The notes beneath the pieces were generated by a model. That model was given only the letters and a program-made list of their open reading frames with translations. It had not been told where the DNA came from and did not search any database. A DNA stretch of 64,000 nucleotides, taken from Bacteroidales bacterium. GTDB lineage: Bacteria > Bacteroidota > Bacteroidia > Bacteroidales > WCHB1-69. The position numbers were made by a program, and so were the translations under genes. Positions 33,501-53,184 of this stretch are shown here, piece by piece (position 1 is the stretch's first letter; each line of letters begins with the position of its first letter). Location of the stretch: contig JBLJBB010000048.1 in NCBI GenBank assembly GCA_047638115.1, forward strand, positions 8,606 to 72,605, written 5' to 3'.

Positions 33501-33503
33501 AAG

Positions 33504-34406: not shown

Positions 34407-34425
34407 ATATAATAAAAAAAAAGAT

Positions 34426-35913: not shown

Positions 35914-36045
35914 ACAAATGAAAATTTTGACTAGAGACAAGGGACTAAAGATTAGGAATATGGATAACAACAATTTTTTTAAATGAGATATATAAAATTA
36001 GGTGCCAGTTGATCACTAAAATGTTTAAAATGAAATGGTTTTATT

Positions 36046-36726
36046 ATGAAAATTCTTATTATTGAAGATCAAGCTGAACTTCTTGATTCAATTTATAATG
36101 CATTAACGAAAGAAAATTTTATTTGTGAAATCGTTGAGACAAAGCGAAAAGCTGAATATAAGATATATACATTTGATTATGATATACTTATTGTGGATAT
36201 TAATCTCCCCGATGGTTCAGGATTAGATATTATAAAACAAATAAAAAACATAAATAGTCGTGTTGGAGTAATTATTATTTCTGCCAGAAACTCTTTAAAT
36301 CATAAAATTGAAGGATTGGAAATAGGTGCTGATGATTATATTACAAAACCTTTTGATATGTCAGAATTGATAGCTCGGGTTAAATCATTGATTAGAAGAC
36401 GTAAGTTTAGTGGTGAAGAGCGGGTAACCTTTGGAAATATTACTATAAATACTTCAAAAAGAGAGGTTTTTGTTGATGAAATATTAGTGGATCTTACTAA
36501 AAGTGAATACCAAATATTGCTATTTTTCTTTTCAAATCCTAATAGAGTCATCTCTAAAGAAACCATAGCAGAACATATTTGGGGAGATAATATGGATATC
36601 TCTGATTCTTTCGACTTTATTTATTCCCATATCAAAAATCTAAGAAAAAAAATTGTTCCCAAAGGGGAAGTAAATCCTATAAAAGTAGTATATGGTATTG
36701 GTTATAAATTTGAAACAATCATTTAA
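36046..36726 (+). CDS. OmpR/PhoB-type response regulator
   Basis: MKILIIEDQ...DILIVDINLPDGSG receiver. Winged-helix C-terminus ...VYGIGYKF. Confidence 0.9.
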   Translation: MKILIIEDQAELLDSIYNALTKENFICEIVETKRKAEYKIYTFDYDILIVDINLPDGSGLDIIKQIKNINSRVGVIIISARNSLNHKIEGLEIGADDYITKPFDMSELIARVKSLIRRRKFSGEERVTFGNITINTSKREVFVDEILVDLTKSEYQILLFFFSNPNRVISKETIAEHIWGDNMDISDSFDFIYSHIKNLRKKIVPKGEVNPIKVVYGIGYKFETII

Positions 36727-37953
36727 ATGAAACTTTTAACGAAAACCAACCGGTTGTCATTTATTTGGATCATTCCTGTTATTATTATAGGAAGTTTATT
36801 TTGTTATTATATGATTCAATATATAGTTTACGAAGAAGCTGATGAATATTTGAAATATGAAATGAATCGAATTGTAGCTTATTATAATGAATTTGAGGAT
36901 CTTCCAGACAATCATTCAGTTGTTACTATAATTGATGATTTAAAATATGATAAACCTAAATTTAAAGACACTTTGATCTTAGAAACAGAAGATAATGAGA
37001 TGGTTCCTTATCGAGAATTATACTTCACAATACAACATAAAGGGATCTATAAAACCATATTATTAAGACATTTACTGGTTGGGAACGACGATATTTTTGA
37101 AGGTACAATATTTATTATTATTGGTTTAATTTTACTGATTACAAGTGCATTTTTATTCATGACGAATTACACCTCTCAAAAAGTGTGGAAACCTTTTTAT
37201 GATACTTTACACAAAATTGTAGGATATAAAACCAACGATTCCATTCCAAATTTCGAAAAAACATCAATTGATGAATTTAATAGTTTAAATCAAACACTTG
37301 AGAACTTACTAAATAAAATCCAGAGTGATTTTAAAAGAACCAAAGAGTTCAATGAAAATGCATCTCATGAGTTACAAACACATTTATCTGTAATTAGGGC
37401 AAATTCAGAATTGTTATTAAATGATGCTGATTTTAAAAATCATCAAATTATTGAAAAGATTTTTCAAACAACCCTTAAACTTTCAAGAACTCAAAGTTCT
37501 TTGTTGTTGCTAAGTAAAATTGGTAATCAAGAGTTTAGTAATCAAGATCGGGTAAATTTTAAAGAATCTATTGATTCTTCTTTAGCTCTTTTTATGGAAT
37601 TAATTCATATCAGAAAGATTAATTTAGAACTTTCTCTAAAAGATTGTTTTACAATAATTGATTCTGGATTAGCTGAAATTTTGATCAATAATTTAATCAA
37701 AAATGCTGTTAAACACAATATTGAAGGTGGGTTTATCTCAATATCTACCACCACCAACACAATCTGTATAGAAAATAGTGGAAACTATTATACACAATTT
37801 CCAAATCAACTTATGGAGCGGTTTCAAACTGGATACCAAGGAAATATGGGTATAGGGTTGGCGATTGTTAAACAAATTTGCGATTTATATAACTTTAAGA
37901 TCTTCTATAATATATCTGAGAATAATGTTCATCGTTTTGAAATTATTTTGTAA
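36727..37953 (+). CDS. Sensor histidine kinase
   Basis: Two TMs, H-box NASHELQTHLS, N-box LINNLIKNAVKHN, G-box GNMGIGLAIV. Abuts the regulator gene. Confidence 0.88.
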   Translation: MKLLTKTNRLSFIWIIPVIIIGSLFCYYMIQYIVYEEADEYLKYEMNRIVAYYNEFEDLPDNHSVVTIIDDLKYDKPKFKDTLILETEDNEMVPYRELYFTIQHKGIYKTILLRHLLVGNDDIFEGTIFIIIGLILLITSAFLFMTNYTSQKVWKPFYDTLHKIVGYKTNDSIPNFEKTSIDEFNSLNQTLENLLNKIQSDFKRTKEFNENASHELQTHLSVIRANSELLLNDADFKNHQIIEKIFQTTLKLSRTQSSLLLLSKIGNQEFSNQDRVNFKESIDSSLALFMELIHIRKINLELSLKDCFTIIDSGLAEILINNLIKNAVKHNIEGGFISISTTTNTICIENSGNYYTQFPNQLMERFQTGYQGNMGIGLAIVKQICDLYNFKIFYNISENNVHRFEIIL

Positions 37954-38073
37954 AAAGAAGAAATTCAGAATTTCTACAAAATCATAGTTTACTTTTGTCC
38001 CATAAAGATTGAAAACAATCGAGGAGGTTACTGAAAATCCTAAAAAGAGTAAGACAAAAATAAACAAATAATC

Positions 38074-38499
38074 ATGAAAAAACTATTTTTAATTTTAACC
38101 ACGATTATCCTTTTAACAGGATGTGAAAAAGAAACGATTATTCAAGGCAATCAAGTTCCTGAAAAAATTAAAACCTATTTGGAAACCCATTTTTTAAATT
38201 ACTCTGTTTTGCAACTACTTGAAGATAGAGAAGGGTTTAATTTAACATACGATGTTACCTTAGAACAAGGTTATTTTCTTGAATTTAACAGGAAAATGGA
38301 AATTATTGAAGTCACAGGAACACAAACTATTCCACATTCTGTAATTCCATCTGTTATTTTAACTTATGTTCAAACTCATTTTGTAGAAGAATCTATACTC
38401 TCTTGGGATTTAAGTGATAGAATTCAAGAAGTAACTTTAGATAATGGATTGCAATTGGAATTTGACAAAGAGGGAAATTTTTTAAGAATTGATAACTAA
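38074..38499 (+). CDS. PepSY-like (DUF2874-type) lipoprotein
   Basis: Lipobox LLTGC. Two repeats of the P..I..Y....F...........Y.V.L..G..LEF pattern. Confidence 0.6.
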   Translation: MKKLFLILTTIILLTGCEKETIIQGNQVPEKIKTYLETHFLNYSVLQLLEDREGFNLTYDVTLEQGYFLEFNRKMEIIEVTGTQTIPHSVIPSVILTYVQTHFVEESILSWDLSDRIQEVTLDNGLQLEFDKEGNFLRIDN

Positions 38500-38505
38500 A
38501 AAACT

Positions 38506-38862
38506 ATGAAAAAAATAATTTTAATAATCAGCGCATTTTTATTCATTCAAATGGGTTATGGGCAATATGTAGGACCCAAAAGCACGAATAAAACATTTAC
38601 GGTTAAAGAAGTGAGGGATAATGGTGCCAAATTAGATCGATCAGATCAGCAAGTTAAATTAAAGGGATTTATTATTTCTCAAATCAATAACAATACTTAC
38701 GAATTTAGAGATTCAACAGGAATCATTAGAGTAGATATAAAACCGTATTTACTTCAAAATAAAAAATTTGATGATAAACTGGAGATCACCATTATCGGAG
38801 AGGTTGATTATGATCTTTTAGAAGGAACGGAGATCGATGTTGATCAAGTGATATTCCCTTAA
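38506..38862 (+). CDS. YgiW/YdeI-family bacterial OB-fold (BOF) periplasmic protein
   Basis: Signal peptide. FTVKEVRDN..., NNNTYEFRDSTGIIRVDI, EITIIGEVDYD. Confidence 0.7.
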   Translation: MKKIILIISAFLFIQMGYGQYVGPKSTNKTFTVKEVRDNGAKLDRSDQQVKLKGFIISQINNNTYEFRDSTGIIRVDIKPYLLQNKKFDDKLEITIIGEVDYDLLEGTEIDVDQVIFP

Positions 38863-38891
38863 TTTTGAGGGAATATCACTTGATTTATTTT
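38843..38891 (+). terminator. Strong terminator hairpin overlapping the BOF gene stop
   Basis: Perfect 17-bp arms atcaagtgatattccct (38843-38859) / agggaatatcacttgat (38868-38884), followed by ttatttt. Confidence 0.7.
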
Positions 38892-38942
38892 GTAAGGGAA
38901 AAACGATTTTTAGCGTAATTTTTGAAACTTGTAGTTTTTATG

Positions 38943-38950
38943 TATATTTG
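38943..38950 (+). promoter_or_regulatory. -7 box retained upstream of the hydrolase pseudogene
   Basis: tatatttg, 21 nt upstream of the ATG at 38971. Confidence 0.4.
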
Positions 38951-38970
38951 TGGGTTAAAAAGCTCATTAT

Positions 38971-39250
38971 ATGAAAAATCTGAAATTTCAAATCTTTAAA
39001 TTGTTTATTATGATTTCATTATTAGTTTCAATGTTAAGTTGCTCTTTTAATAAAACCTTAGAGAACCGCGAAGGATTTCTTCAGGTAAAAGGTGGAAAAG
39101 TTTGATGAAGTAACGGAAAACACTTTAATGAAGTACAAAAATTTAATTCCAGAAGCTCAGTCAGTCATCATTAAAGGAGCAGCTCACATGACGATGCAAG
39201 ATAATCCAGGAGAGAACAATGCAGCCATATCCTCTTTTATGGGTAAATAA
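38971..39250 (+). pseudogene. Alpha/beta-hydrolase (proline-iminopeptidase-like) pseudogene, copy B, with large internal deletion
   Basis: The ATG opens the lipoprotein-like MKNLKFQIFKLFIMISLLVSMLSCSFNKTLENREGFLQVKGGKV, then TGA. A different frame continues EVTENTLMKYKNLIPEAQSVIIKGAAHMTMQDNPGENNAAISSFMGK* (catalytic-His C-terminus). About 200 codons of core are missing. Confidence 0.8.
39031..39225 (+). repeat. 195-bp perfect direct repeat, right copy
   Basis: Identical to 33504-33698. Confidence 0.9.
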
Positions 39251-39339
39251 TTTTAATAAAAATCTTTTATAGTAAATTGAAAAAGTGATAATCAACTATC
39301 ACCTTAATTGGCTCATGATCACATTAGCTTATTATTCCG

Positions 39340-39347
39340 TATTTTTG
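39340..39347 (+). promoter_or_regulatory. -7 box upstream of the UPF0597 gene
   Basis: tatttttg, 33 nt upstream of the ATG at 39380. Confidence 0.45.
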
Positions 39348-39379
39348 CAGAAAAATTTCTTCTATCTAATTTTTGATTT

Positions 39380-40705: not shown

Positions 40706-40706
40706 G

Positions 40707-40737
40707 GACTACGGACTGCAGACTACGGACTGCGGAC
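40707..40737. repeat. Heptamer tandem array GACT(A/G)C(G/A) x ~4.4
   Basis: gactacg gactgca gactacg gactgcg gac, starting 2 nt after the stop codon. Same unit as 34111-34141. Confidence 0.85.
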
Positions 40738-40788
40738 ATGTAAATATTTGAATAATAGCCAAATAGAAACACTATTCAATTTATTTTT

Positions 40789-40816
40789 CATTATTCACTA
40801 TTCATTATTCATTATT
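40789..40816. repeat. Heptamer tandem array CA(T/C)TATT x4, abutting R5
   Basis: cattatt cactatt cattatt cattatt. The reverse-complement array lies at 53126-53160. Confidence 0.85.
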
Positions 40817-40817
40817 T

Positions 40818-41028
40818 GGGCGTTCCCCTTTGGCTGCACTCTATTCAATTCACAACACTATATAAAATAAGGAGCGTCGCTGGCCAAAGGGTCGGCCTTT
40901 CGCTTCAAGTCCGCAGGTAAAAGCCTAGTGACTGCAAAGTCGTAAAAGTAGCTCACAAGTTCGCTCTTTTACTCCTTGCATCACTACGACTTTTACCTTT
41001 GCGGGCTTTCACGCTTTCGGCCTAACGC
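40818..41028 (+). repeat. G+C-rich element R5 (family termini, divergent hairpin-rich interior)
   Basis: Starts gggcgttcc and ends cctaacgc like R2-R4. The interior has a 9-bp stem 40826-40834/40883-40891 and a ~90-nt imperfect hairpin 40912-41004. Confidence 0.75.
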
Positions 41029-41030
41029 GA

Positions 41031-41047
41031 AAAAACCTTCGGTTTTT
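41031..41047 (+). terminator. Hairpin with T-run at the inner end of R5
   Basis: aaaaacc ttc ggttttt. Analogous to the hairpin at 52923-52944 next to R4. Confidence 0.4.
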
Positions 41048-41252
41048 GAATAAAAAGAGAATAACAAACAATAAATCTTGATCACAAAATGAAATTTTTA
41101 TAGAATATTTTTTGTAATAAGATTAAAAATATTCCATTTTTAAATACTGATTTTTACAAGGTAAATAAAAAATATTAAAGACTTTTATTATTTTGTAGCC
41201 CATATACTTAAAAATAATTTCAAAAAAACTTGACAATTTGAATTTTTTGTTG

Positions 41253-41260
41253 TACTTTTG
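41253..41260 (+). promoter_or_regulatory. -7 box upstream of the Type I R-M operon
   Basis: tacttttg, 5 nt upstream of the ATG at 41265 (near-leaderless). A ttgaca-like hexamer lies at 41230-41235. Confidence 0.45.
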
Positions 41261-41264
41261 TAGA

Positions 41265-41843
41265 ATGATTACTAAAGAAAATATTTTGAAAACATTAATA
41301 AAGGAAATCACAAACATTCAAACAGGATTATTTGCAAAACCATCCGGTTCGGGTGATTTGGTTTATCTGCAATCCAAACATTTTGACGAATCTGGTCAAC
41401 TGCTTGCTGTTTTACATCCAGACCTTAAATCTATTAATATTTCTGAAAAACACCTATTAAAAGAGGGTGATGTACTTTTTGCTGCTAAAGGGAATAAAAA
41501 TTTTGCTACCGTTTTTGAAAACCATAATGAAGCAGCTGTAGCTTCAACCTCTTTTTTTGTTATTAGAATAACCGACAAAAAAATAGCACCCCATTATTTA
41601 GTATGGCTTCTTAATAGTCACTCTATTCAAAAAGAATTGAAAGGTCAGGCATTAGGAACTTCAATTCTTTCCATATCAAAACAAGTCTTAGAAAATTTAG
41701 AAATTTTAGTTCCAAGTATTGAAACACAAAAAATTATTCTACAAATTACTGAACTTCGAAATAGGGAAAAAACTTTGAAGCAAAAAATTGAAACACTTAG
41801 AGATAACCAAATTCAAAAACAAATTTTTAATATAATAAAATAA
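41265..41843 (+). CDS. hsdS: Half-size (single-TRD) Type I R-M specificity subunit
   Basis: 192 aa. One target-recognition domain, then a conserved helix ...LENLEILVPSIETQKIILQITELRNREKTLKQKIETL. Start trimmed from the tracked TTG at 41238 to the ATG behind the promoter box. Confidence 0.7.
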   Translation: MITKENILKTLIKEITNIQTGLFAKPSGSGDLVYLQSKHFDESGQLLAVLHPDLKSINISEKHLLKEGDVLFAAKGNKNFATVFENHNEAAVASTSFFVIRITDKKIAPHYLVWLLNSHSIQKELKGQALGTSILSISKQVLENLEILVPSIETQKIILQITELRNREKTLKQKIETLRDNQIQKQIFNIIK

Positions 41844-41845
41844 AT

Positions 41846-43408
41846 ATGATGACTAAAATAACTCAGAAAGAGATTAACGATGCTGTTTGGAAAGCGTGCG
41901 ATACCTTTAGAGGAAGTATTGATCCCAGCGTTTACAAAGACTATGTTCTTACTATGCTTTTTATCAAATATCTTAGTGATGTTCATGATGATAAAATGGA
42001 AAGCTACTTAAAAAAATATGATGGTGATATAGAACGTGCTAAAAGAGCCATGCAACACGAAAGATTTCTAGTTCCGAATCAAAGTCATTATAAATTTTTG
42101 TATGAACATCGCAATGAAGCCAACATTGGAGAACTGATCAACATAGCACTTACCGACTTGGAAGAAGCCAATCGTGAAAAACTATATAGTGAAGATGGAG
42201 CAGGAATTTTCCAGAATATAGATTTTAACAGTAGCAAACTGGGTGAACCCAAAGACAAAAACCAACGTTTGAAAACCCTTTTGATCGATTTTAAATCGGA
42301 TAAATTGGACTTACGTCCTTCCCATTTGGATGGAAACGACATCATTGGAGGAGCTTACATGTTCTTGATTGAAAATTTTGCCAGTGATGCAGGAAAAAAA
42401 GCGGGTGAATTTTTTACCCCAAAAGAAGTTTCTACCCTTATTGCCAAGCTTACCAAATCTAAACCAGGTTCACGCATTTGCGATCCAACTTGCGGATCAG
42501 CTTCACTCTTGATTAAAGCCGGTGAAGAGGTAGGTTCAGACAATTTTTCACTCTACGGACAAGAAGCCAACGGAAGTACATGGGCTTTAGCGGTTATGAA
42601 TATGTTTTTGCATGGTTTTGATAATGCAACCATTCGTTGGGGCGATACCATTCGCAATCCAAAATTGAAAGAAGGTGATACTTTAATGAAGTTTGATACC
42701 GTTGTGGCAAATCCACCATTTTCATTAGATAAATGGGGAAAAATTGAAGACAAAGAGGGAGACAAAACAACCATAAGTTATGACCCTGAAACCGATAAAT
42801 ATAATCGTTTTTGGAGAGGTGTTCCACCCAAAAGCAAAGGGGACTGGGCATTTATCAGTCACATGATTGAAACACTGAATGAGCAAGGAAAAGCGGGTGT
42901 AGTAGTACCACACGGTGTATTGTTTCGTGGCAGTAGTGAAGGACGGATTCGTCAACGTACCATTGAAGATAATTTACTTGAAGCTGTGATTGGGCTTCCT
43001 TCTAATCTATTTTTTGGTACAGGTATTCCCGCTGCCATTATGATCTTTAACAAACTAAAAAGCAGTAATAACGTATTATTTATAGATGCCAGTAAACAAT
43101 ATGAAAGTGCTAAAAACCAAAACAGACTCCGCGAGGGTGACATTGAACATATTGTAAACACCTATCGTGATTTTTCATTAGGTAATTTACAAGTAGGGGT
43201 AGCGGAAGAAAAATTCAGTTATGTGGCAACTTTCGAGGAGATACAAGAAAACGATTTTAATTTGAACATTCCCCGTTATGTGGACACCTTTGAAGAGGAA
43301 GCCGAAGTGGACATTGCTGCGGTGCAACAAGAGATTGAAAAGCTTGAAGAGGAATTGGTACATGTTCAGAATGAAATTGAAGTTTATTTAAAGCAATTAA
43401 TAAAATAG
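41846..43408 (+). CDS. hsdM: Type I R-M N6-adenine DNA methyltransferase
   Basis: HsdM_N-like start, FFTPKEV, DPTCGSASLL (motif I), VVANPPFS (motif IV). Confidence 0.93.
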   Translation: MMTKITQKEINDAVWKACDTFRGSIDPSVYKDYVLTMLFIKYLSDVHDDKMESYLKKYDGDIERAKRAMQHERFLVPNQSHYKFLYEHRNEANIGELINIALTDLEEANREKLYSEDGAGIFQNIDFNSSKLGEPKDKNQRLKTLLIDFKSDKLDLRPSHLDGNDIIGGAYMFLIENFASDAGKKAGEFFTPKEVSTLIAKLTKSKPGSRICDPTCGSASLLIKAGEEVGSDNFSLYGQEANGSTWALAVMNMFLHGFDNATIRWGDTIRNPKLKEGDTLMKFDTVVANPPFSLDKWGKIEDKEGDKTTISYDPETDKYNRFWRGVPPKSKGDWAFISHMIETLNEQGKAGVVVPHGVLFRGSSEGRIRQRTIEDNLLEAVIGLPSNLFFGTGIPAAIMIFNKLKSSNNVLFIDASKQYESAKNQNRLREGDIEHIVNTYRDFSLGNLQVGVAEEKFSYVATFEEIQENDFNLNIPRYVDTFEEEAEVDIAAVQQEIEKLEEELVHVQNEIEVYLKQLIK

Positions 43409-43410
43409 AA

Positions 43411-43863
43411 ATGAAAAACGAACTATCAAATCTACACAAAACTTTGTTTGAGCAGATCAAACAAGTTGATAAAGAAGGTAATGAATGGTGGTCAGCAAGA
43501 CAACTTGGTAAAGTACTGGAATACTCAGAATATCGTCATTTTAAACCAGTAATTGATAAAGCCAAGGAAGCCTGTGTAAATAGCTCTCAAGAAGTATCAG
43601 ACCATTTCGAGGAGTTCCTCGAAATGGTTGACATTGGATCTGGCGCTCAACGTCCTATGGGAGATGGTGTAAAACTTTCTCGTTATGCTTGTTACCTGAT
43701 TGTTCAAAATGCTGATCCAAGTAAAGAGGTTGTTGCACAAGGACAAACCATTGAAGAGATTGGGGGTACGATGCCTGAAGATCTCCCTGTTGCCGAAAGT
43801 ATCAAAAAGCTGGAAAAAGCAAAAGAGCCGAAGATGTTAAATACACCCAAAAAGAAAAAATAA
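43411..43863 (+). CDS. DinD-like (DNA-damage-inducible protein D family) protein, short form
   Basis: GNEWWSARQLGKVLEYSEYRHFKPVIDKAKEAC...LSRYACYLIVQNADPSK matches the DinD N-terminal half. It jumps directly to a TMPEDLPVAESIKKLEK-type C-terminus. Confidence 0.65.
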   Translation: MKNELSNLHKTLFEQIKQVDKEGNEWWSARQLGKVLEYSEYRHFKPVIDKAKEACVNSSQEVSDHFEEFLEMVDIGSGAQRPMGDGVKLSRYACYLIVQNADPSKEVVAQGQTIEEIGGTMPEDLPVAESIKKLEKAKEPKMLNTPKKKK

Positions 43864-44969
43864 TGACTGAAACAAAAAACATGACAATACCATCTGATTG
43901 GGAAATTTTACATTTAGGAGAAATTTTTAAACTTACTTCAGGAAAGACAAAACCCAGTGAGTTATTTGATGAACATGTTGATGAATATATTTATCCTGTT
44001 TATGGTGGAAATGGAATAATTGGGTTTGCTAAAGAATTTAATTCAGAAGGTGAAAATATTTTAATTGGAAGGGTTGGTGAGTATTGCGGGATTACTCGAT
44101 TTTTAAATGAAAAGTGTTGGATTACAGATAATGCATTATACTCAAAAGATTTTTTAATTGACATTGATGCAAAGTTCTTAGTATACAAATTACAATTAGA
44201 CGATTTGTCAAAACTTAGGAACAAAGGAGGCCAACCACTAATTAGTCAAGGACCAATTAGTCTTAACAAAGTTTGTATACCAAGATCACTTCCTGAGCAA
44301 AAAGCGATAGCTCGGGTTCTCAGCACTTGGGATGAAGCGATCCACAAAACCGAACAACTCATTGCCCAAAAAGAACTCCGCAAAAAATGGCTGATGCAAA
44401 ATCTTCTAACCGGGAAAATGAGATTGAAGGGGTTTGATGGGGAGTGGGAAGATATTGAATTAGGTGAACTGTTGAATTATGAGCAACCTACAAAATACTT
44501 AGTTAAGGATACTCTTTACAGCAATTTGTATTCTATTCCTGTTTTAACAGCGGGTAAGACATTTATTTTAGGTTATACTAATGAAGAAAATGATATTTGT
44601 GATGATTTGCCTGTTGTGATTTTTGACGATTTTACTACTGCCTCAAAATATGTTGATTTTCCGTTTAAGGCAAAATCCTCGGCGATGAAGCTTCTAAGAC
44701 CTAAGCAAAACGTTAATTTAAAGTTTGTTTTTGAAGCTATGAAATTAATAAATTATGTTGTTGGTAACCATGAAAGACATTGGATTTCAAAATTTGTTTA
44801 CCTAACAATTCCTTGTCCTTTCATTGATGAACAAACCGCTATTGCTGAAGTATTACAAGCTGCAGATAAAGAGATAAGCTTGCTCAAAGCCAAAGTGGAG
44901 AAATTAAAGGAACAGAAAAAGGGGTTGATGCAGGTGTTGTTGACAGGGAAAAAACGATTAAAAGCATAA
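43863..44969 (+). CDS. hsdS: Full-length (two-TRD) Type I R-M specificity subunit
   Basis: Two variable domains separated by the conserved helices LPEQKAIARVLSTWDEAIHKTEQLIAQKELRKKWLMQNLLTGKMRL and DEQTAIAEVLQAADKEISLLKAKVEKLKEQKKGLMQVLLTGKKRL. Confidence 0.9.
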   Translation: MTETKNMTIPSDWEILHLGEIFKLTSGKTKPSELFDEHVDEYIYPVYGGNGIIGFAKEFNSEGENILIGRVGEYCGITRFLNEKCWITDNALYSKDFLIDIDAKFLVYKLQLDDLSKLRNKGGQPLISQGPISLNKVCIPRSLPEQKAIARVLSTWDEAIHKTEQLIAQKELRKKWLMQNLLTGKMRLKGFDGEWEDIELGELLNYEQPTKYLVKDTLYSNLYSIPVLTAGKTFILGYTNEENDICDDLPVVIFDDFTTASKYVDFPFKAKSSAMKLLRPKQNVNLKFVFEAMKLINYVVGNHERHWISKFVYLTIPCPFIDEQTAIAEVLQAADKEISLLKAKVEKLKEQKKGLMQVLLTGKKRLKA

Positions 44970-44981
44970 TAAAAATTACAC

Positions 44982-46283
44982 ATGAATACAGCAGAAATAT
45001 TTAAAGATTTTCTTACTAATATAAAAATTAGTGATGATAAAGCTGAAGAAATTTCGTATCGATATGGTCGAATTACAAAAGCATTAAACAAAGAGTTTCG
45101 TGATACTGATTCAAAAACATCCAATAGTTTACAAGTAGGATCTTATGGTAGATATACTGGAATAAATGGAATTTCAGACTTGGATATGCTTTATATAATG
45201 CCTGCCTCCAAATGGGATAACTATAACAAAACAGGCGGACAATTAAAACTACTCCAAGATACTAAAACAGCAATTTCAAACACTTATTCTTCATCTGATA
45301 TAAAAGTTGACAGATGCGTAGTTACAGTTAAATTTTCAGATTCTCATATCGATATACAACCTGTATTTGAAATAGAAGACCAAGATTATAAATATCCTGA
45401 CACTTATAGAGATGGATCTTGGAAAATTACCAAGCCAAGAAAAGAAATGGACGCGATGGTAGAATTTTCTGACAATAAGAACAAAAATCTTAGGCGGCTA
45501 TGTAAGATGGCAAGAGCATGGAAAAATAAGCATGGAGTTTGTATGAATGGACTTTTAATTGATACACTAGCATACAATTTTCTAAAGGCAACTACATATT
45601 TTGACGAAAAAACTTTTTCTTTTTATGATGAAATGTGTAAAGATTTTTTTAAATATTTATATGAACTGCCTAAAGACCAAACAGAATTTGGAGCATTAGG
45701 GAGTAAACAAAGAGTAAAAGTTAAGAAATCTTTTAATCGAAAAGCAAAAAAAGCCTATGATTTATCTTTAGATGCGTTTGATGCCACAACGGATAAACTA
45801 AAACACAACAAATGGAGAGATGTTTTTGGAAAGGATTTTCCAAAATTTGAAAGCGAAGAGAATGAAGCAAGGGAAATAAATGAAAGTTATCATAATACGG
45901 AAGAATTTATTGAATCAAAATACCCAATAGATATTCGTTATGATTTAAAAATAGATTGTGATATAAAACAAAGTGGGTTTAGAGAAGGATCATTGAGAGA
46001 GTATTTGTTTAAAAAAATTAAATTGATGCCAAATAAATCACTAAGATTTTTCATTGAAAGAATTGATGTACCACCTCCTTATGAGGTGAAGTGGAAAGTA
46101 ACTAATAGAGGTGAACAAGCAATTAAAAGAGATTGTATAAGAGGGCAGATTATTGACGACCATGGTTCTCAAGAAAGAAAAGAAAATACAAATTTTAAAG
46201 GAAGTCATTTTGTAGAGTGTTACATAATAAAAAATAATTTTGTAGTAGCAAGAGATTTGATTGATGTTCCAATTTCAGAATAA
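44982..46283 (+). CDS. SMODS-type pol-beta nucleotidyltransferase with a ~200-aa beta-rich C-terminal extension
   Basis: VGSYGRYTGINGISDLDMLYIMP (G-S, 11 residues, D-x-D). Third acidic strand SHIDIQPVF. C-terminal ...YEVKWKVTNRGEQAIKRDCIRGQIID... Confidence 0.7.
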   Translation: MNTAEIFKDFLTNIKISDDKAEEISYRYGRITKALNKEFRDTDSKTSNSLQVGSYGRYTGINGISDLDMLYIMPASKWDNYNKTGGQLKLLQDTKTAISNTYSSSDIKVDRCVVTVKFSDSHIDIQPVFEIEDQDYKYPDTYRDGSWKITKPRKEMDAMVEFSDNKNKNLRRLCKMARAWKNKHGVCMNGLLIDTLAYNFLKATTYFDEKTFSFYDEMCKDFFKYLYELPKDQTEFGALGSKQRVKVKKSFNRKAKKAYDLSLDAFDATTDKLKHNKWRDVFGKDFPKFESEENEAREINESYHNTEEFIESKYPIDIRYDLKIDCDIKQSGFREGSLREYLFKKIKLMPNKSLRFFIERIDVPPPYEVKWKVTNRGEQAIKRDCIRGQIIDDHGSQERKENTNFKGSHFVECYIIKNNFVVARDLIDVPISE

Positions 46284-46298
46284 TTTAAAAACATAAAT

Positions 46299-46856
46299 AT
46301 GAACGAGCAAAAAAAAATACTTGAATCTCAAATAAGAGAAATATACGGAAGGGTGGTTTACACTCATAAAACACATGAAAAATGTGCTGATGTTCTTAAG
46401 AAAAGAAGTGATTATTTGAAGTTTGGTGAAATATTTCTGTCAGCCGTAACGACCACGAGTATTCTAGTAGTTCTTTTTGGAGATGGACAAATATTTCAGT
46501 TTTTAGCCGCATTATTTTCAACAATACTACTCGCATTAACACTCTATACTAAAGATTTCAACTTGTTGGGAATTGCTGAAAAACATAAACAAGCAGCATT
46601 AAATATTCTTGAAATAAGAGAAAAGCTTCTATCTTTACTTGTGGATATCAAGATTGGAAATAAAGAAATCGAAACACTTCAGCATAAAAGAGATGAACTA
46701 AACGAGCAACTTATAAATACTTACAGAGGTGCCCCAAAAACAATTAATAAAGCTTACCAAATTGCATCTATAGCATTAAAAGAAAATGAAGAATTTACTT
46801 TCTCTGACGAAGAAATTGATAAATTTTTACCGGATAGTTTAAAGAAAAATATTTAG
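46299..46856 (+). CDS. SLATT-like two-TM effector protein
   Basis: 185 aa. A helix, then adjacent TM helices FGEIFLSAVTTTSILVVLFG and IFQFLAALFSTILLALTLYT, then an amphipathic helical tail. Lies 15 nt after the NTase gene. Confidence 0.65.
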   Translation: MNEQKKILESQIREIYGRVVYTHKTHEKCADVLKKRSDYLKFGEIFLSAVTTTSILVVLFGDGQIFQFLAALFSTILLALTLYTKDFNLLGIAEKHKQAALNILEIREKLLSLLVDIKIGNKEIETLQHKRDELNEQLINTYRGAPKTINKAYQIASIALKENEEFTFSDEEIDKFLPDSLKKNI

Positions 46857-46867
46857 AATTTAAAATT

Positions 46868-48601
46868 ATGACCATATCAGAATTAAAACAGCTTAAAGAA
46901 AGCGAAGATAAAGTTGAGTTTAAAGCCGCCACACATAACTTTTCTTATGCAGGAAGCGACCACAGAGACCAGGAAGAAAGACGCAAGTGTTTTTTAGGGT
47001 ATGTGGTTGCATTCTCGAATGAGGGTGGTGGAAGGCTTATCTTAGGGATGTCAGACAATGAACCACATGATGTAGTGGGGAGTGATTTCGCACAGGGAAA
47101 AGTTGGAGCATTAGAAGATGAAACGTACAGCCGATTGGGCATCAGGGTGCGAATGGAAGAACACTCTGAAAATGAATTGCGGGTTTTAATTGCTCACATT
47201 CCCCCACGACCTGTTGGCAAGATGATGAAATTTGAAGGAGTGCCATTAATGAGAGTGGGTGAAAGTTTACGCAACATGAGCGATGAAGAGATGTTTGCCA
47301 TTCTTTCAGAACAAGAACCCGACTTTTCAGCCAAATTTTGCAAAGGCATCAACATAGCAGATTTAGATGATGCTGCAATTAAAAAAATGAAAGAGAGTTA
47401 TGCCCGCAAGCAAAAGAATCCGGGCTTCCTGCAGCTCAGCACTGAACAAGTTTTAACTGATTTAAAATTGCTCGAAAAGGGTAAACTTACCTATGCTGCA
47501 CTGGTTTTATTGGCAAAAAAAGAGGTTATTCACAATAAATTACCACAATGCAAAACCATTTGGGAGTTACGCAATAGCGAAGCACAAATACACTACGATA
47601 GCCGTGAGGTAATTGATGAACCTTTGTTTATAGCCATAGAAAGCATTTGGAAATTGATAAACCAACCTACACTCAACAAAAAACATCCAGTACAATCGGG
47701 AGCTTATATTTTCGATTTGTATGATTTTAACGAAGAAGTAATTCGCGAAGCTGTTCTCAATGCCATTGCCCATCGGGATTACACTATCACCAGCGAAACG
47801 GTTATAAAACAATATCCCAACAAAATTATCATTACCAACCCGGGAGGTTTCCCTAAAGGCGTAAATATTGAAAATATTCTTACGGTGAGTAGTACACCCA
47901 GAAGCCGTTTAATGACCGAAATTTTGGAAAAAACCGGCTTGGTAGAACGCAGTGGACAAGGAGTAGATAAAATTTTTTCTATCACTTTAACTGAAGGAAA
48001 GGCAGAACCCGACTATAAAAATTCAGACATGTTTCAGGTTTCGATTATGCTCCGAACAGAAATTATTGACAAGGCATTTCACGTATTTATAAGCCAATAT
48101 CAAAACAGCGATAAAGAACCTAAATTGGGCGTTGAGCAAATCATTACTCTATACAAAATCCACAACGGCATATTTCAAAACTTAAAATCAGAAATCGTAA
48201 GTCAGCTAGAAAAATCAGGGTTAATTGATAAAATTTCAGGACACACCACCCGATATACCTTGTCGCAAGAATACCATGCATTGGTAAATGATGATTTAAA
48301 GATTGGGAAAAGATATTTGGTAAAAGAGATAGAACTCATTCTTATGGCATTGCAAGGAAATGCTTTAAAAATGGGTAATCTAGAGGAAAATCTTAAATCT
48401 TCATTGAATCGAAATCAGATAAAGTACCTTACAGGAAAGTTATTTGAAGATGAGGTATTGAGCAAAGACGGCATAGGAAGTGGAACTTCCTATGCTATCC
48501 ATAAATCATTTTCTTCTCTTAGGGGCGAAGTTCTAATTCAAAATGTGATTTCATTTTTAAACAGTAAGTATGGGTCGGGCAATTCTCCAAAAGCAACTTA
48601 A
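46868..48601 (+). CDS. AlbA_2 (Schlafen-like) + HATPase_c_4 + wHTH protein (RecG-C-terminal-like putative regulator)
   Basis: ESEDKVEFKAA...GGGRLILGMSD (AlbA_2). REAVLNAIAHRDY, ITNPGGFP, ERSGQGVDKI (HATPase_c_4-type). Confidence 0.75.
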   Translation: MTISELKQLKESEDKVEFKAATHNFSYAGSDHRDQEERRKCFLGYVVAFSNEGGGRLILGMSDNEPHDVVGSDFAQGKVGALEDETYSRLGIRVRMEEHSENELRVLIAHIPPRPVGKMMKFEGVPLMRVGESLRNMSDEEMFAILSEQEPDFSAKFCKGINIADLDDAAIKKMKESYARKQKNPGFLQLSTEQVLTDLKLLEKGKLTYAALVLLAKKEVIHNKLPQCKTIWELRNSEAQIHYDSREVIDEPLFIAIESIWKLINQPTLNKKHPVQSGAYIFDLYDFNEEVIREAVLNAIAHRDYTITSETVIKQYPNKIIITNPGGFPKGVNIENILTVSSTPRSRLMTEILEKTGLVERSGQGVDKIFSITLTEGKAEPDYKNSDMFQVSIMLRTEIIDKAFHVFISQYQNSDKEPKLGVEQIITLYKIHNGIFQNLKSEIVSQLEKSGLIDKISGHTTRYTLSQEYHALVNDDLKIGKRYLVKEIELILMALQGNALKMGNLEENLKSSLNRNQIKYLTGKLFEDEVLSKDGIGSGTSYAIHKSFSSLRGEVLIQNVISFLNSKYGSGNSPKAT

Positions 48602-48755
48602 AATTCTCCAAAATATGGAAATCGTAAATAATTTAAATTCTCCAAAACAGATATTTATTTCTCCAAAATCATATACTAAATTTGTTTATTATGTTGTATA
48701 ACATTTATTTAAAAATTTATAATAATTCTCCAAAACAGGATTTCTATTCTCCAAA
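48582..48755 (+). promoter_or_regulatory. Six direct ATTCTCCAAA(A/G) repeats arranged as three pairs with 21-bp spacing
   Basis: Copies start at 48582, 48603, 48637, 48658 (TTTCTCC variant), 48724 and 48745. The first lies in the last codons of the upstream gene. Confidence 0.6.
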
Positions 48756-48893
48756 GAGGATGAAAACCATGCAGGATTCAATTCTCTGTATTGGATAATT
48801 TAGTATCTAAAAAATGGAAGAATTGAAAATATAGGGAGTTTTGTAAACCAAAATGGTCTCTTAAAAAGTAAAATTGAAAAAATTTAAGAGAGA

Positions 48894-48937
48894 ATTTATT
48901 AGAGGATTATTAGAGATTTATTAGAGGATTATTAGAG
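48894..48937 (+). repeat. Perfect 2 x 22-bp tandem (= 4 x TTATTAGAG at exact 11-bp spacing) upstream of hsdR
   Basis: atttattagaggattattagag occurs twice and ends 29 nt before the ATG at 48967. Confidence 0.85.
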
Positions 48938-48966
48938 ATTCAATTCTCAAAAAAAATTAAAAAATT

Positions 48967-51900
48967 ATGAATATACCAAGCTTTAAAGAAGATCATATCA
49001 GTCAAATTCCGGCTCTGCAAATGCTGGTGAATTTGGGTTATATTTATTTAAGTCCGGATGAAGCGGACAGACAAAGAGGGGGTAAAACAACCAACGTTTT
49101 ACTGGAAGATGTTTTACGAAAGCAGTTAAAGGAGATCAATAGCATCAAAGTGAGTGCTACTAAAACGGGCATTTTTACTGACGAAAATATCGAACGTGGA
49201 ATTTTAGCTTTGAAGAACCTTCCTTTGAATGATGGTTATATTGCAGCCAGCGAAAGAGCGTATAATCTTCTTACTTTAGGGCACTCTTTGGAACAAAGTA
49301 TTGATGGTGACAAAAAAAGTTTTACGCTTCAATATATTGACTGGAAAAACATCAACAACAATGTGTTTCATGTAACAGAAGAATACAGCGTAATGCGTAG
49401 CACAAGCAAAGAGCATTATCGTCCAGATTTGGTGCTATTTATAAATGGAATCCCCTTATGTATTATCGAATGCAAAAGACCGGATATGAAAGACCCATTG
49501 AAACAAGCGATTAGCCAGCATCTTCGGAGTCAACAGGAAGATGGAATTCGTAATTTATATATGTATTCTCAATTCATACTGAGTATTGCATCACAAGAAG
49601 CCTCTTTTGCAACCAATGCAACACCAGAGAAGTTTTGGGCAAAGTGGGAGGAGAAATTTAATAACAAAGAAGAAGAAGAACAATACAAATCAAATTTGAA
49701 TAAACTCAAAAACAAAGCGATTTCTAATGCAGTCAAGGAACAAATTTTTAAAGATCGATTCAGATATGTACGTCAATATTTTGACGCATTAGAGCAAGAG
49801 GATATCCAATTAACAGAACAGGATGTGTATTTATATGGATTGTGCAGACCTGAGAGATTGATAGAAATTGTTTTTAATTTTATTTTGTTCGACAATGGAG
49901 AGAAGAAAATTGCTCGTTACCAACAGTTTTTTGCAGTCAAAAAATCTATACAACGGATCAGAAACATGGAACATGGAAAACGAAAAGGGGGTGTAATCTG
50001 GCATACACAAGGGAGTGGAAAATCTCTAACTATGGTGATGCTCGCACAAGCTATTGCTTTAGAACCAACTATTCGTAATCCCAAAATTGTTTTGGTAACC
50101 GATCGTACCGATTTGGATAATCAGATTACAAGTACATTCCGTAAATGTGGCAAATTTGTTGAGAACGCGACAACAGGGCAGCGCTTGGTTGAATTATTGG
50201 AAAGTAAAAGTGATGCTGTTGTTACTACCATCATCAACAAATTTGTGGCTGCGGTTAAAAAAATAAGTAACCCCTTAGATAGCCCCGATATTTTTGTTTT
50301 AGTTGATGAAGGACACAGAACTCAGCATGGCATTTTTAATATCGATATGCAAAAGACTTTACCCAACGCATGTTTCATTGCCATGACCGGAACACCTCTT
50401 TTTAAAAAAGATAAAAGTACGGCAGAAAAATTTGGTGGATTAATTGATGACTACACCGTGGACAAAGCGGTCACTGACAAAGCGGTTGTCCCATTGCTCT
50501 ATGAAGGAAGGTTAGCATTACAAGATGTGAATGCAAATCCAATTGATACTTTTTTCGGGATGGTTGCTGAACCACTTAATGAATACCAAAAAGCAGACAT
50601 CAAAAAGAAGTTCGCCCGTTATGACCACTTGAACTCAGCGGAGCAGAAAATGCGCATGATTGCTTGGGATATCAGTTATCATTTTCGTGATAACTGGCAA
50701 GATAGTACCCCATTTAAAGGTCAATTGGTTTGCGATAAAAAAGTGAATGCCATCAAATACAAAGAATACTTGGATGAAATTAACATTGTGAGTAGCGAAG
50801 TATTGATATCATCTATTGATGAAAGGGAGGGAGAAGATAGTGCCTATGAAAAATCATCCGAAAAAGTGAATCAATTTTGGAAAAAAATGATGAATGAGCA
50901 TGGGAATGCTAAAAGTTATGAGAAGAATATCATCAATCGTTTTAAAAATCAGAAAGATCCTGAAATCATTATTGTTGTCGATAAACTCCTTACAGGATTT
51001 GACGAACCCAAAAACACTGTTTTATATCTCACCAGAAATTTACAAAATCATAAATTACTGCAAGCCATTGCACGGGTAAACCGAATTTATCCCGATAAAG
51101 AATTTGGGTATATTATTGATTATTATGGAGTTATTGAAAATCTAGATGATGCATTGTTGTTGTATTCCTCTTTTAAAGATTTTGATGACGATGATTTGGA
51201 AGGGACACTTACCAATATTAATGAGGAGATAAAAAAATTACCTCAAAACCATTCAAACCTTTGGGATATTTTTAAAACAATTGCTAACAAACGAGATGTC
51301 GAAGCATATCAACAACTATTGAAAGATGAAGCAATACGAGTTTTATTTTACGATAAATTAGCTGCCTTTGCTAAAAGCCTCAAAATAGCTTTATCTTCTA
51401 TTCAATTCCACAAAGAGGTTGAAGAAAAAACGATCAATCGTTATAAAGAAGATTTGACTATGTTTATGAAACTTCGTATTGCTGTAGCAAAAAGATATAG
51501 TGATACCATTGACTATAAACAATATGAAGGACAAATTCAAAAATTAATAGATACCCATATCACTACTGAGAAAATAGAAACCATCACGGAATTAGTGAAC
51601 ATTTTTGACAAGGATAAGTTTCAACAAGAAGTCGAAAACACAACCGGTAAAGTTGCCAAGGCAGATAAAATTGCCAGCAGAACTTCCAAACACATCAGTG
51701 AAAAGATGGATGAAGATCCGGCATTCTATAAAAAATTCTCACAAATGTTAAAAGAGACTATTGCAGAATATGAAGCTAAAAGAATTAGTGAAGCACTCTA
51801 TCTAAGTAGGGTTCAAGATATCATGAACCATGTTTTAGCTCATACAGACGATGATATTCCGGAGCAATTAAAAAATCGAGATGTAGCAAAAGCTTTTTTC

Positions 51901-52194
51901 GGGTTGACTGTTGAAGCACTTGCAGAAAAAATTCAAGATAATGTTATACGCAAAGAAGTATCAACACAAACAGCTTTGCAAATTGACAATATAATTCAAC
52001 AAACAATATTGGATAATGGCCAGCCTATAGTTGATTGGCAATATAAAACTAACATTACAGGAAAATTGTTTATTGAAATTGGGGACTATCTCATTGACGA
52101 AGTAAGAAATAAATATGATATAAACATCTCTTTTTCCGAAATGGACAAGATTGTTGACGACTGTATTGAAGTAGCAAAAATTCGTTATAAGTAA
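48967..52194 (+). CDS. hsdR: Type I restriction endonuclease, R subunit
   Basis: N-terminal PD-(D/E)xK (RPDLVLFINGIPLCIIECKRP). Helicase motifs HTQGSGKSLTM, VLVDEGHRTQ, MTGTPL. 1075 aa. Confidence 0.93.
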   Translation: MNIPSFKEDHISQIPALQMLVNLGYIYLSPDEADRQRGGKTTNVLLEDVLRKQLKEINSIKVSATKTGIFTDENIERGILALKNLPLNDGYIAASERAYNLLTLGHSLEQSIDGDKKSFTLQYIDWKNINNNVFHVTEEYSVMRSTSKEHYRPDLVLFINGIPLCIIECKRPDMKDPLKQAISQHLRSQQEDGIRNLYMYSQFILSIASQEASFATNATPEKFWAKWEEKFNNKEEEEQYKSNLNKLKNKAISNAVKEQIFKDRFRYVRQYFDALEQEDIQLTEQDVYLYGLCRPERLIEIVFNFILFDNGEKKIARYQQFFAVKKSIQRIRNMEHGKRKGGVIWHTQGSGKSLTMVMLAQAIALEPTIRNPKIVLVTDRTDLDNQITSTFRKCGKFVENATTGQRLVELLESKSDAVVTTIINKFVAAVKKISNPLDSPDIFVLVDEGHRTQHGIFNIDMQKTLPNACFIAMTGTPLFKKDKSTAEKFGGLIDDYTVDKAVTDKAVVPLLYEGRLALQDVNANPIDTFFGMVAEPLNEYQKADIKKKFARYDHLNSAEQKMRMIAWDISYHFRDNWQDSTPFKGQLVCDKKVNAIKYKEYLDEINIVSSEVLISSIDEREGEDSAYEKSSEKVNQFWKKMMNEHGNAKSYEKNIINRFKNQKDPEIIIVVDKLLTGFDEPKNTVLYLTRNLQNHKLLQAIARVNRIYPDKEFGYIIDYYGVIENLDDALLLYSSFKDFDDDDLEGTLTNINEEIKKLPQNHSNLWDIFKTIANKRDVEAYQQLLKDEAIRVLFYDKLAAFAKSLKIALSSIQFHKEVEEKTINRYKEDLTMFMKLRIAVAKRYSDTIDYKQYEGQIQKLIDTHITTEKIETITELVNIFDKDKFQQEVENTTGKVAKADKIASRTSKHISEKMDEDPAFYKKFSQMLKETIAEYEAKRISEALYLSRVQDIMNHVLAHTDDDIPEQLKNRDVAKAFFGLTVEALAEKIQDNVIRKEVSTQTALQIDNIIQQTILDNGQPIVDWQYKTNITGKLFIEIGDYLIDEVRNKYDINISFSEMDKIVDDCIEVAKIRYK

Positions 52195-52889
52195 TGAAAG
52201 ATTCAATTCAATTTGGAAGCAAAACCATTGTTTTTCAGTTAGAATATTCCGACAGAAAATCACTAGGTATTACAATAACACCGGAAATGGATGTACTAGT
52301 AAAAGTTCCTTTCGACTCTTCTATAGAAAAGGTAACAGAGAAAATCAGAAAGAAAGCACCTTGGATCATAAAACAACAAAGTTACTTTCTTTCATTTCAA
52401 CCAAGGACACCCCAACGCAAATATATCAGTGGAGAAACACATTTATATTTAGGAAGACAATATCGGTTGCAGGTTGAAATTGGTCACGAGGAATCGGTAA
52501 AGTTAAAAGGGAAATTCATTATTGTAATAGCAAAAGAAAAATCAAGAGCAAAAGAATTATTGCAAGATTGGTATCTAGAACACGCAAAAGCCAAATTTAA
52601 AGCCATTGCTACACCACTCATAGAAAAATTCAAAAAGTACAAAATCGAACCAACTTCAATTGTACTTCGAGATATGCCGACACGATGGGGTAGTTGTACG
52701 CCTTTAGGAAAAATTATGTTAAATCCCGAATTGATTAAAGCCCCAAAAGGGTGTATTGAATATGTTATCATTCACGAACTGTGCCATTTAATTCACCATT
52801 CCCACTCACAGAAATTTTTTGATTTACAAACAAAAGAAATGAAAGACTGGGAAAAGTGGAAAATAAAGTTGGAAAAATTATTAGCTTAA
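52194..52889 (+). CDS. DUF45/YgjP-like (M48-type, SprT-like) zinc metallopeptidase
   Basis: RWGSCTPLGKIMLNPELI...YVIIHELCHLIHHSHSQKFF. TAATG overlap with hsdR. Confidence 0.8.
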   Translation: MKDSIQFGSKTIVFQLEYSDRKSLGITITPEMDVLVKVPFDSSIEKVTEKIRKKAPWIIKQQSYFLSFQPRTPQRKYISGETHLYLGRQYRLQVEIGHEESVKLKGKFIIVIAKEKSRAKELLQDWYLEHAKAKFKAIATPLIEKFKKYKIEPTSIVLRDMPTRWGSCTPLGKIMLNPELIKAPKGCIEYVIIHELCHLIHHSHSQKFFDLQTKEMKDWEKWKIKLEKLLA

Positions 52890-52922
52890 TTGATAATAAA
52901 TCCAAGTTGTCAATTATATTAA

Positions 52923-52944
52923 AAAACCGCGTCAGCGGTTTTTT
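52923..52944 (+). terminator. Terminator of the R-M operon
   Basis: aaccgc gtca gcggtt followed by tttt. It abuts the inner end of R4. Confidence 0.65.
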
Positions 52945-53122
52945 GCGTGAGGGATGCGAAAGGCGCCGAAGGCGGTGCGAACTGGAACGAGCGCCGTGAT
53001 GAATGATCCATGATGACGATCTTATCTTAAGCGTAGTGCAGTGAAGCACGGGAGCGAAGCGAACCCTGGAGCAAGCCCGACGGCGTGGGTGGGATTCGTG
53101 TGTCGGGAAAGCCGGCACGCCC
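52945..53122 (-). repeat. G+C-rich interspersed element, copy R4 (inverted)
   Basis: The reverse complement reads gggcgtgccggc...atcccacccacgccgtcgggcttgctccagggttcgcttcgctcccgtgcttcactgca...caccgccttcggcgcctttcgcatccctcacgc. Confidence 0.85.
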
Positions 53123-53125
53123 AAA

Positions 53126-53160
53126 AATAGTGAATAACTAATAGTGAATAATGAATAATA
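53126..53160. repeat. Heptamer tandem array AATA(G/A)(T/C)(G/T/A) x5 (reverse complement of the CAYTATT array)
   Basis: aatagtg aataact aatagtg aataatg aataata, directly outside R4. Confidence 0.8.
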
Positions 53161-53163
53161 TTG

Positions 53164-53184
53164 TCTGTTGACCGTTGACTGATT
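53164..53184. repeat. Degenerate heptamer array (T/A)C(T/C)GTTG x ~3
   Basis: tctgttg accgttg actgatt, ending at the mutS stop. Confidence 0.5.

Follow-up and report, generated by a model that had tools for sequence, protein, structure and literature searches.

Convergent structured repeats as possible recombination-prone borders of a defence-island slot in a Bacteroidales bacterium

Results

We looked at the borders of a restriction-modification (R-M) and defence island in a 64,000-nucleotide (nt) stretch of DNA from a Bacteroidales bacterium (assembly GCA_047638115.1, contig JBLJBB010000048.1). This whole stretch is called the window and all coordinates are its own; its G+C content is 32.5% and its nearest relatives are uncultured Bacteroidales-like metagenome-assembled genomes. 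The island lies between a yhaM-like gene and mutS and is bordered by two structured repeats, R5 on the left and R4 on the right, which the original prediction had taken for an inverted pair forming either the termini of a composite or mobilisable unit or preferred recombination or insertion sites. Our tentative reading, to which we give a probability of about 45%, is that R5 and R4 are recombination-prone borders of a slot in which cargo is swapped, and not the ends of a rigid composite transposon. The whole block is absent from relatives, convergent pairs of the repeats recurrently enclose cargo, and strain junctions fall at the 3' ends of the elements; the second of the two predicted possibilities therefore fits. 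In the mechanism that we propose, convergent pairs would mark a slot for accessory DNA, and recombination at the element 3' ends and their hairpins, or close beside them, would bring cargo in, remove it or exchange it. The border elements themselves could be replaced or truncated, and the recombining enzyme or pathway would act in trans. We infer that the elements cause or guide recombination and that their active form is single-stranded DNA or RNA.

Layout of the island borders

The features of the two borders, from left to right, are as follows.

40706-40737, + strand: array of GGACTRC heptamers that follows the yhaM-like stop codon immediately (Tandem Repeats Finder (TRF), period 7, 4.6 copies)
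40738-40781, + strand: AT-rich first 44 nt of the inserted DNA, in which TTGAATA...TATTCAA forms a short inverted repeat (junction placed by comparison with the empty site of locus L101 and by blastn)
40782-40817, + strand: CAYTATT array (40782-40816) and T-tract, a generic element 5' flank (TRF, pattern search)
40818-41028, + strand: R5, type-B structured element, core GGCTTCAAGTCCGCAG, terminal helix P1 GCGTT/AACGC (nhmmer E 4e-46)
41029-41048, + strand: A-tract, short hairpin and T-tract, GAAAAAACCTTCGGTTTTTG, resembling a weak bidirectional terminator; unchanged in loci L117 and L120
41151-52889, + strand: island core, hsdS fragment to YgjP (Pfam, PADLOC, blastn against L117/L120)
52921-52944, - strand: A6, CCGC-GTCA-GCGG hairpin and T6, resembling a bidirectional terminator and abutting the R4 3' end
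52945-53122, - strand: R4, type-A structured element, core TCCAGGGTTCGCTTCGCTCCCGT, P1 GCGTG/CACGC
53123-53160, - strand: T-tract and inverted CAYTATT array (53126-53160), the R4 5' flank; the inserted DNA ends at about 53150-53153
53161-53184, + strand: TGTCTGT/TGACYGT degenerate heptamers, reaching the mutS stop codon and already present at the L101 empty site

The arrays, elements and hairpins previously described at these places were confirmed by TRF, pattern search and inverted-repeat search. The pattern search gave 7 matches to GGACTRC against 0 expected and 7 to CAYTATT against 0.11 expected, and tandem 7-nt units occur in the non-coding DNA of the window (TRF period-7 arrays at 34110, 40706, 40779 and 53126). 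The two CAYTATT arrays form a 36-nt inverted repeat, which is 89% complementary and the longest in the region. R5 (G+C about 50%) reads TTGGGCGTTCC...GCCTAACGC at its ends and R4 (about 63%) reads TTGGGCGTGCC...CCCTCACGC. The two elements are convergent, their 3' ends pointing inward, with a CAYTATT array outside and an A-tract, hairpin and T-tract inside each. The left hairpin, AAAAAACC-TTC-GGTTTTT (also written GAAAAAACC-TTC-GGTTTTTG), is weak (-4.3 kcal/mol, z -1.5) and the right one, AAAAAACCGC-GTCA-GCGGTTTTTT, is stronger (-11.9 kcal/mol, z -3.8); a simple terminator scan of both borders called neither hairpin.

The orientation proposed for the inverted pair is correct, but R5 and R4 are members of different subfamilies, types B and A, in a large superfamily of structured repeats that are 85-230 nt long and intergenic. 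Identity over their first 50 nt is 56%, their interiors bear no relation to each other, and the end modules alone are in common, with TTTGGGCGTKCC at both outward 5' ends. Likewise, the matching arrays and hairpins are present and mirrored, but they are generic flanks of single elements and the outermost arrays are native to the spacer. The borders are mirror images because two copies stand convergent, each with the normal array and hairpin flanks of a single copy.

Empty sites in relatives and border variants

Empty sites were looked for in relatives, as had been proposed, and were found: the yhaM-like gene (SDH_alpha family) stands next to mutS and both elements are absent. These island-free relatives are loci L100-L102 (94-95% nucleotide identity), L108 and L109 (86%) and L104-L107 (74%), in which the two stop codons are 15-46 nt apart, the distance being 46 nt in the relatives at 94-95% identity; Joint Genome Institute (JGI) metagenomes added four loci of relatives, one of them informative. 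The L101 spacer reads TAA-GGACTACGGACTACGGAC-AATTTTGTCTGTTGTCTGTTGACTGATT-TTA and, compared to it, the insertion spans about 40738-53150 (12.4 kb) and has within it the two elements as well as the inner arrays. This comparison gave no matching termini and no clear target duplication at the junctions, GGAC on the left and AAT(A/T)TTGTCTG on the right. The outer GGACTRC and TGTCTGT/TGACYGT arrays are present at the empty sites and are therefore native to the spacer, outside the insertion. A GGACNNN array follows the yhaM-like stop at the same position across species (window, L101, L110, L111, L117/L120 and L123), with units GGACTAC, GGACGAA and GGACGGC/GGACAAC and a variable copy number, which suggests that this array may be maintained.

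The island also occupies the yhaM-mutS spacer in a distant lineage, that of L117 and L120, where identity to the window is 76-80% for the yhaM-like gene and 77% for mutS. Window segments 41151-43401 and 48565-52887 match L117/L120 at 94.4-94.8% by blastn, and the comparison shows that the core of the island was transferred horizontally to the same spacer. Identity ends at the left hairpin and, on the right, at the YgjP stop codon. The left border of L117 is a divergent type-B relative, its interior diverged from that of R5, and 27 nt from the 3' end of the left element through the hairpin are identical between window and L117. Its right border is a stub, GGAATGCCC, with AGTGAAT arrays. Both island-bearing lineages have elements at both borders, and the island was seen in the yhaM-mutS spacer only, with ends that differ among strains and lineages.

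Within the window species, R4 is full in L113, and in L114 and L115 it is reduced to a 9-nt stub, GGCACGCCC, with arrays; the copy number of the TGTCTGT/TGACYGT units varies. In L116, identity to the window is 100% as far as 52945, after which the sequence passes into unrelated DNA, possibly inserted precisely at the R4 3' end. At 916-1091 of L116, the terminal hairpin of the island is followed by this unrelated DNA instead of R4, and an open reading frame (ORF) there opens with MKAIHNNKKIIMWYKVTELNSKGLNK. Judged from these alignments, the island core moves without its border elements.

A further junction of this kind lies elsewhere in the window, which holds five element copies in 64 kb. Besides R5 and R4, these are:

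11950-12068, + strand: R1, short type-A copy, P1 GTGTG/CACAC
33354-33498, + strand: R2, type-A copy, P1 GCATT/AATGC; absent from L100; forms a convergent pair with R3
34229-34408, - strand: R3, type-A copy, P1 GCGTT/AACGC; kept in L100; strain-variable DNA begins at its 3' end

Three window segments are missing from L100, namely 33344-34227, 35919-39361 and the island. The first contains R2 and a piece of a hydrolase pseudogene and ends exactly at the 3' end of R3, homology between window and L100 being resumed at 34228. Strain junctions were therefore found at most 1 nt from element 3' ends in independent comparisons (L116 at 52945, L100 at 34228).

Convergent pairs and their cargo

Pairs of neighbouring elements were counted by profile searches over all collected loci, which gave 16 pairs, many from one genome (OW818690.1). 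Eight are convergent, six tandem and two divergent; among those at most 4 kb apart, the numbers are 7, 2 and 1, that is, 7/10 convergent against 25% expected. A type-B element facing a type-A element recurs in L039, L069, L026, L035 and the window, with spacings of 192 nt, 228 nt, 1.7 kb, 3.7 kb and 11.9 kb. The cargo of other pairs comprises a PemK/MazF toxin, DUF3307 with SatD, a tetratricopeptide repeat (TPR) protein and proteins of unknown function, one of which has a toxin-metallopeptidase match below the Pfam cut-off. In this small sample, convergent pairs appear to be commoner than expected, and what they enclose is accessory in character.

Anatomy, fold and distribution of the repeat family

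Type A comprises R1-R4 and is defined by a common 23-nt core, TCCNGGGTNCGCTTCGCTNCCGT (4 matches in the window against 0 expected). Type B is represented by R5, and its core recurs in L039, L029, L026 and L108. From 5' to 3', a copy consists of heptamer arrays and a T-tract, GGGCRTK, a variable hairpin, the conserved core, more variable hairpins and CCCTNAYGC. The T-rich tract before GGGCG is found in all lineages without a fixed sequence, and arrays of the ATTCAYT type are common 5' of copies elsewhere. In the window lineage, an A-tract, hairpin and T-tract come straight after the element 3' end (3' consensus GAAAAA, hairpin, T-run). Period-7 arrays cluster at elements, 61 of 96 non-coding arrays being at most 150 nt away, in a zone that makes up 19% of non-coding bases. 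A 5'-module profile search found no further divergent copies or stubs. A form of about 52 nt recurs (L035 3319-3368, L086 7022-7071), which is the 3' part of a type-B-like element alone, joined directly to ATTCACT arrays.

In helix P1, nt 3-7 pair with the last five nt of the copy, and the variants are GCGTG/CACGC, GCATT/AATGC, GCGTT/AACGC, GCGGC/GCCGC and GTGTG/CACAC. When the two ends were anchored independently, all five positions paired in 65% of 65 copies against 24% (standard deviation (sd) 4%) with shuffled partners, and mixed variant classes are essentially absent. Three short helices are nested within P1, with variable hairpins branching between them: Pb (GGN/N'CC, by eye), Pj (UGY/RCA, 3/3 pairs covarying) and Pc (RGG/CCY, with a covarying pair that is G-C in 36 copies and A-U in 8, with zero exceptions). 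Covariation supports this nested fold. For R5, the predicted fold includes P1 and has a minimum free energy of -76.8 kcal/mol (z -6.8). As to the strand, the reverse one folds better in 45/50 copies, and mismatches of the G.U and A.C types are equally frequent, with 5 of each; neither strand is therefore favoured by the mismatches, and wobble asymmetry was rejected as a guide to the functional strand. Conserved triloops TNC, closed by C-G, read GNA on the reverse strand; GNA is a motif of stable DNA mini-hairpins, for example d(GCGAAGC). Two other ideas were rejected: a tRNA-derived short interspersed element, the T-arm-like stretch being variable at a tRNA-invariant position, and a Bacteroidetes -7 box (TAnnTTTG) abutting the element 5' end, seen by eye at R4 only.

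The type-A core was found in more than 98 stretches of species-representative genomes among the matches listed, in several phyla. It is multi-copy in Schleiferia thermophila, Thermaurantimonas and chromosome OW818690.1, and occurs elsewhere in Bacteroidota in Chitinophagaceae, Cyclobacteriaceae, Chryseobacterium and Pedobacter. Outside this phylum, it is found in Leptospira and Sediminispirochaeta (Spirochaetota), Limnoglobus and other Planctomycetota, and Fibrobacter (Fibrobacterota). Phage carriage is rare (2 matches in 2.9 million viral contigs) and plasmid carriage amounts to one weak Pontibacter match. At single copies, no target-site duplication was seen, the longest word common to both flanks being 1.81 against 1.59 (sd 0.26) with shuffled partners. 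The repeat family seems to be undescribed: Rfam 15, including Flavo-1, HEARO and the known ribozymes, contains no match to the elements (nothing relevant at E <= 10 over both borders; 0 matches on 16 copy-bearing loci of diverse taxa), and in the literature searched the core sequence is not described and nothing specific on such repeats, of MITE (miniature inverted-repeat transposable element) or REP (repetitive extragenic palindrome) kind, was found for Bacteroidota. The sole Rfam match in the window is a single tRNA gene at 30515-30588. In L007 1-6639 (also L053 and L071), copies of one repeated spacer of 0.35-0.75 kb stand between unrelated genes for a short-chain dehydrogenase/reductase, a nitroreductase-like protein and a protein of the arginine deiminase family; two copies of the spacer contain a type-A element, in a layout like a cassette array.

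Discussion

Several points weigh against a cargo slot with recombination-prone borders. No candidate enzyme was found among the window genes checked or in any cargo. Zero resident elements were seen in the empty yhaM-mutS spacers of any lineage, and a pre-existing slot therefore cannot explain the first arrival here. The junctions of 35919-39361 have arrays on both sides (GACTAGA-type on the left, CACATTAGCTTATTATT on the right) and no element. Most copies are solo, and elements point with or against the adjacent genes almost at random (36 same, 29 opposite). The sample of 16 pairs is small and drawn largely from OW818690.1, and the 5' modules of partners are 0.78-0.88 alike against a random-pair background of 0.78 (sd 0.09) in that genome; partner-specific matching of 5' modules in convergent pairs was rejected as no better than background. 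Finally, the folding energy of type A is not unusual compared to shuffled sequence (z +0.6 and -0.4), so that the evidence for its fold is covariation, not energy.

Some of these points would be expected if the elements were incidental passengers, that is, selfish MITE/REP-like repeats or non-coding RNA genes settling in AT-rich, array-rich non-coding DNA, much of it supplied by islands, with no role in island exchange. The solo copies, some of them in ordinary intergenic regions such as that of R1, the near-random orientation and the local indel at 35919-39361 without an element at its junctions all favour this explanation, as do the arrays and hairpins being generic single-copy flanks and R5 and R4 being of different types. 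However, elements stand at both borders in both island-bearing lineages and at none of the empty spacers, the junctions of independent comparisons fall within 1 nt of element 3' ends, and convergent pairs are in excess within 4 kb (7/10); we consider mere passengers somewhat unlikely. A true composite unit is a quite unlikely explanation. Here the arrays, R5, the island, R4 and the outer arrays would have moved together through a transposase encoded elsewhere that recognised the outward 5' modules, as with MITE pairs. It would account for an indel that comprises the whole 12.4 kb with both elements and the inner arrays, for the common outward 5' sequence and inverted CAYTATT arrays, and for the compact B-facing-A pairs about 200 nt apart elsewhere. 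Against it, the two 5' modules are only 56% identical, the junctions show no clear target duplication and no matching termini (no duplications were seen at single copies either), and the unit was found in this one spacer only. The 94% identity with L117/L120 halts at the left hairpin and the YgjP stop, with element interiors diverged or truncated there. The first possibility of the original prediction, termini of one composite or mobilisable unit, was not supported: the borders are of different types without a clear target duplication or a terminal repeat, the L117/L120 core has other borders, and R4 is variable within the species.

The elements could also act at the RNA level only, as transcribed structured RNAs that, with the adjacent bidirectional terminators, insulate or stabilise the transcripts of neighbours, the island carrying or acquiring insulators. 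Covariation backing a conserved fold, the terminator-like hairpins that follow both elements and face the island, and the very stable type B (z -6.8) are in agreement with this. However, there is no consistent promoter by eye, the orientation relative to neighbouring genes is inconsistent, the wobble count ties while the reverse strand folds better, the triloops match a DNA mini-hairpin motif on that reverse strand, and the junctions at element 3' ends are left unexplained. An RNA role alone is in our opinion very unlikely.

If the elements of a swap-in slot do guide recombination, it would become clear how a defence island that has no mobility genes can arrive at one and the same intergenic position in lineages whose divergence is too great for ordinary flank homology, which is an open question for defence hotspots without mobile-element genes. 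A wider version, in which the multi-phylum superfamily would serve as paired recombination sites with 3' ends inward, probably as a folded single strand, used by a trans-acting enzyme for the capture and exchange of accessory and defence genes, is unlikely. Such a dispersed cassette system would be an analogue of the integron, without an integrase at the site and with a different site architecture. Regardless, the repeat family deserves description: its 23-nt core is invariant, its helices covary, genomes contain many copies and its range spans several phyla. Some of its carriers are in culture (Schleiferia thermophila, Thermaurantimonas aggregans, Limnoglobus roseus and Leptospira idonii).

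Comparison with known systems

REP sequences, with the bacterial interspersed mosaic elements (BIME) and REP doublets forming hairpins (REPIN) of Proteobacteria, which are mobilised by REP-associated tyrosine transposases (RAYT), resemble the elements as high-copy intergenic structured repeats that are often inverted doublets and often beside terminators. A REP is a palindrome of 20-40 nt that carries a GTAG or CGTC tag, and changes in its stem are compensated, as in the elements here (PMC3733652). In contrast, these elements are 85-230 nt long and have a junction of several helices and an invariant core that is not palindromic; an assignment to REP/REPIN was rejected on size and number of helices. 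No RAYT (TnpA-REP) gene was found among the window genes checked, and no link to RAYT was tested. Like classical MITEs, the elements are short non-coding sequences between genes, present in multiple copies (5 in 64 kb), but a MITE was rejected because only 5 nt per end are complementary (P1) and the rest is asymmetric, against terminal inverted repeats of about 10 bp, and because no target-site duplication was seen. The palindrome-associated transposable elements (PATE) derived from IS200/IS605 have neither terminal repeats nor a duplication, and their conserved short target is on the 5' flank alone; for the elements here no duplication was found, and the T-rich tract on their 5' side has no fixed sequence.

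Pairs of MITEs are able to mobilise DNA, as in integron mobilization units and MITE-flanked integrons, where the copies are near-identical and have terminal inverted repeats and target duplications. Here too, two small inverted non-coding repeats flank cargo without a transposase, but the partners are of different types, no duplication was found, and the cargo moves without its ends. Integron attC sites are alike in that structure is kept over sequence, the ends pair, the interior is variable and accessory cargo adjoins; the distribution of integrons includes Spirochaetota and Planctomycetota. Identity with attC was rejected: the RYYYAAC...GTTRRRY core sites are absent, GTT is at the 5' and AAC at the 3' side (GCGTK...MACGC), and other lineages have GCGGC/GCCGC. 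Unlike integron cassettes, the island and the neighbours checked have no integrase, and the elements form convergent pairs, not co-oriented arrays. In Neisseria, exchange around neisserial intergenic mosaic elements (NIME)/dRS3, Correia elements and 'minimal mobile elements' occurs via transformation and flanking-gene homology. Its strain-variable cassettes between conserved genes, bordered by dispersed repeats and without mobility genes, resemble the present case, but the repeat families are unrelated and the flanking genes here are only 76-80% identical. Heptanucleotide arrays (long simple sequence repeats, cyanobacterial short tandemly repeated repetitive sequences, TAACTGA) are intergenic, strain-variable in copy number and sporadic in some Bacteroidetes (PMC4679880). 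The arrays here differ in having many different units clustered around one repeat family, and the GGACNNN position is kept across species.

Island cargo and other strain-variable DNA

According to Pfam and PADLOC, the island genes are, in order, an hsdS fragment, hsdM, Bro-N, hsdS, a cyclase (SMODS and AGS_C) of the cyclic-oligonucleotide-based antiphage signalling system (CBASS), a SLATT two-transmembrane (2TM) effector, Schlafen/AlbA_2, hsdR and YgjP. The island is a type I R-M system with an embedded CBASS cyclase and 2TM effector, a Schlafen/AlbA_2 protein and YgjP; this gene content bears out the earlier remark that no recombinase is encoded between R5 and R4. At 44982-48601, a type I CBASS-like pair (cyclase with AGS_C sensor, SLATT 2TM effector) and Schlafen/AlbA_2 are nested between hsdS and hsdR, and at the same position L117 has small ORFs instead, including a DUF2188 protein. 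Elsewhere in the operon, KilA-N takes the place of Bro-N. Upstream of hsdR, 48581-48940 is dense in repeats, with AATTCTCCAAA motifs and an 11-nt array (ATTTATTAGAG x5).

The 3.4-kb segment 35919-39361 encodes a response regulator, a histidine kinase and PepSY-like and BOF proteins. A 208-nt direct repeat, 99% identical and consisting of an alpha/beta-hydrolase-like pseudogene fragment, is found at 33504-33711 and 39031-39238. One copy begins 5 nt past the R2 3' end and both lie in segments absent from L100, which hints at a recent capture of DNA beside an element 3' end.

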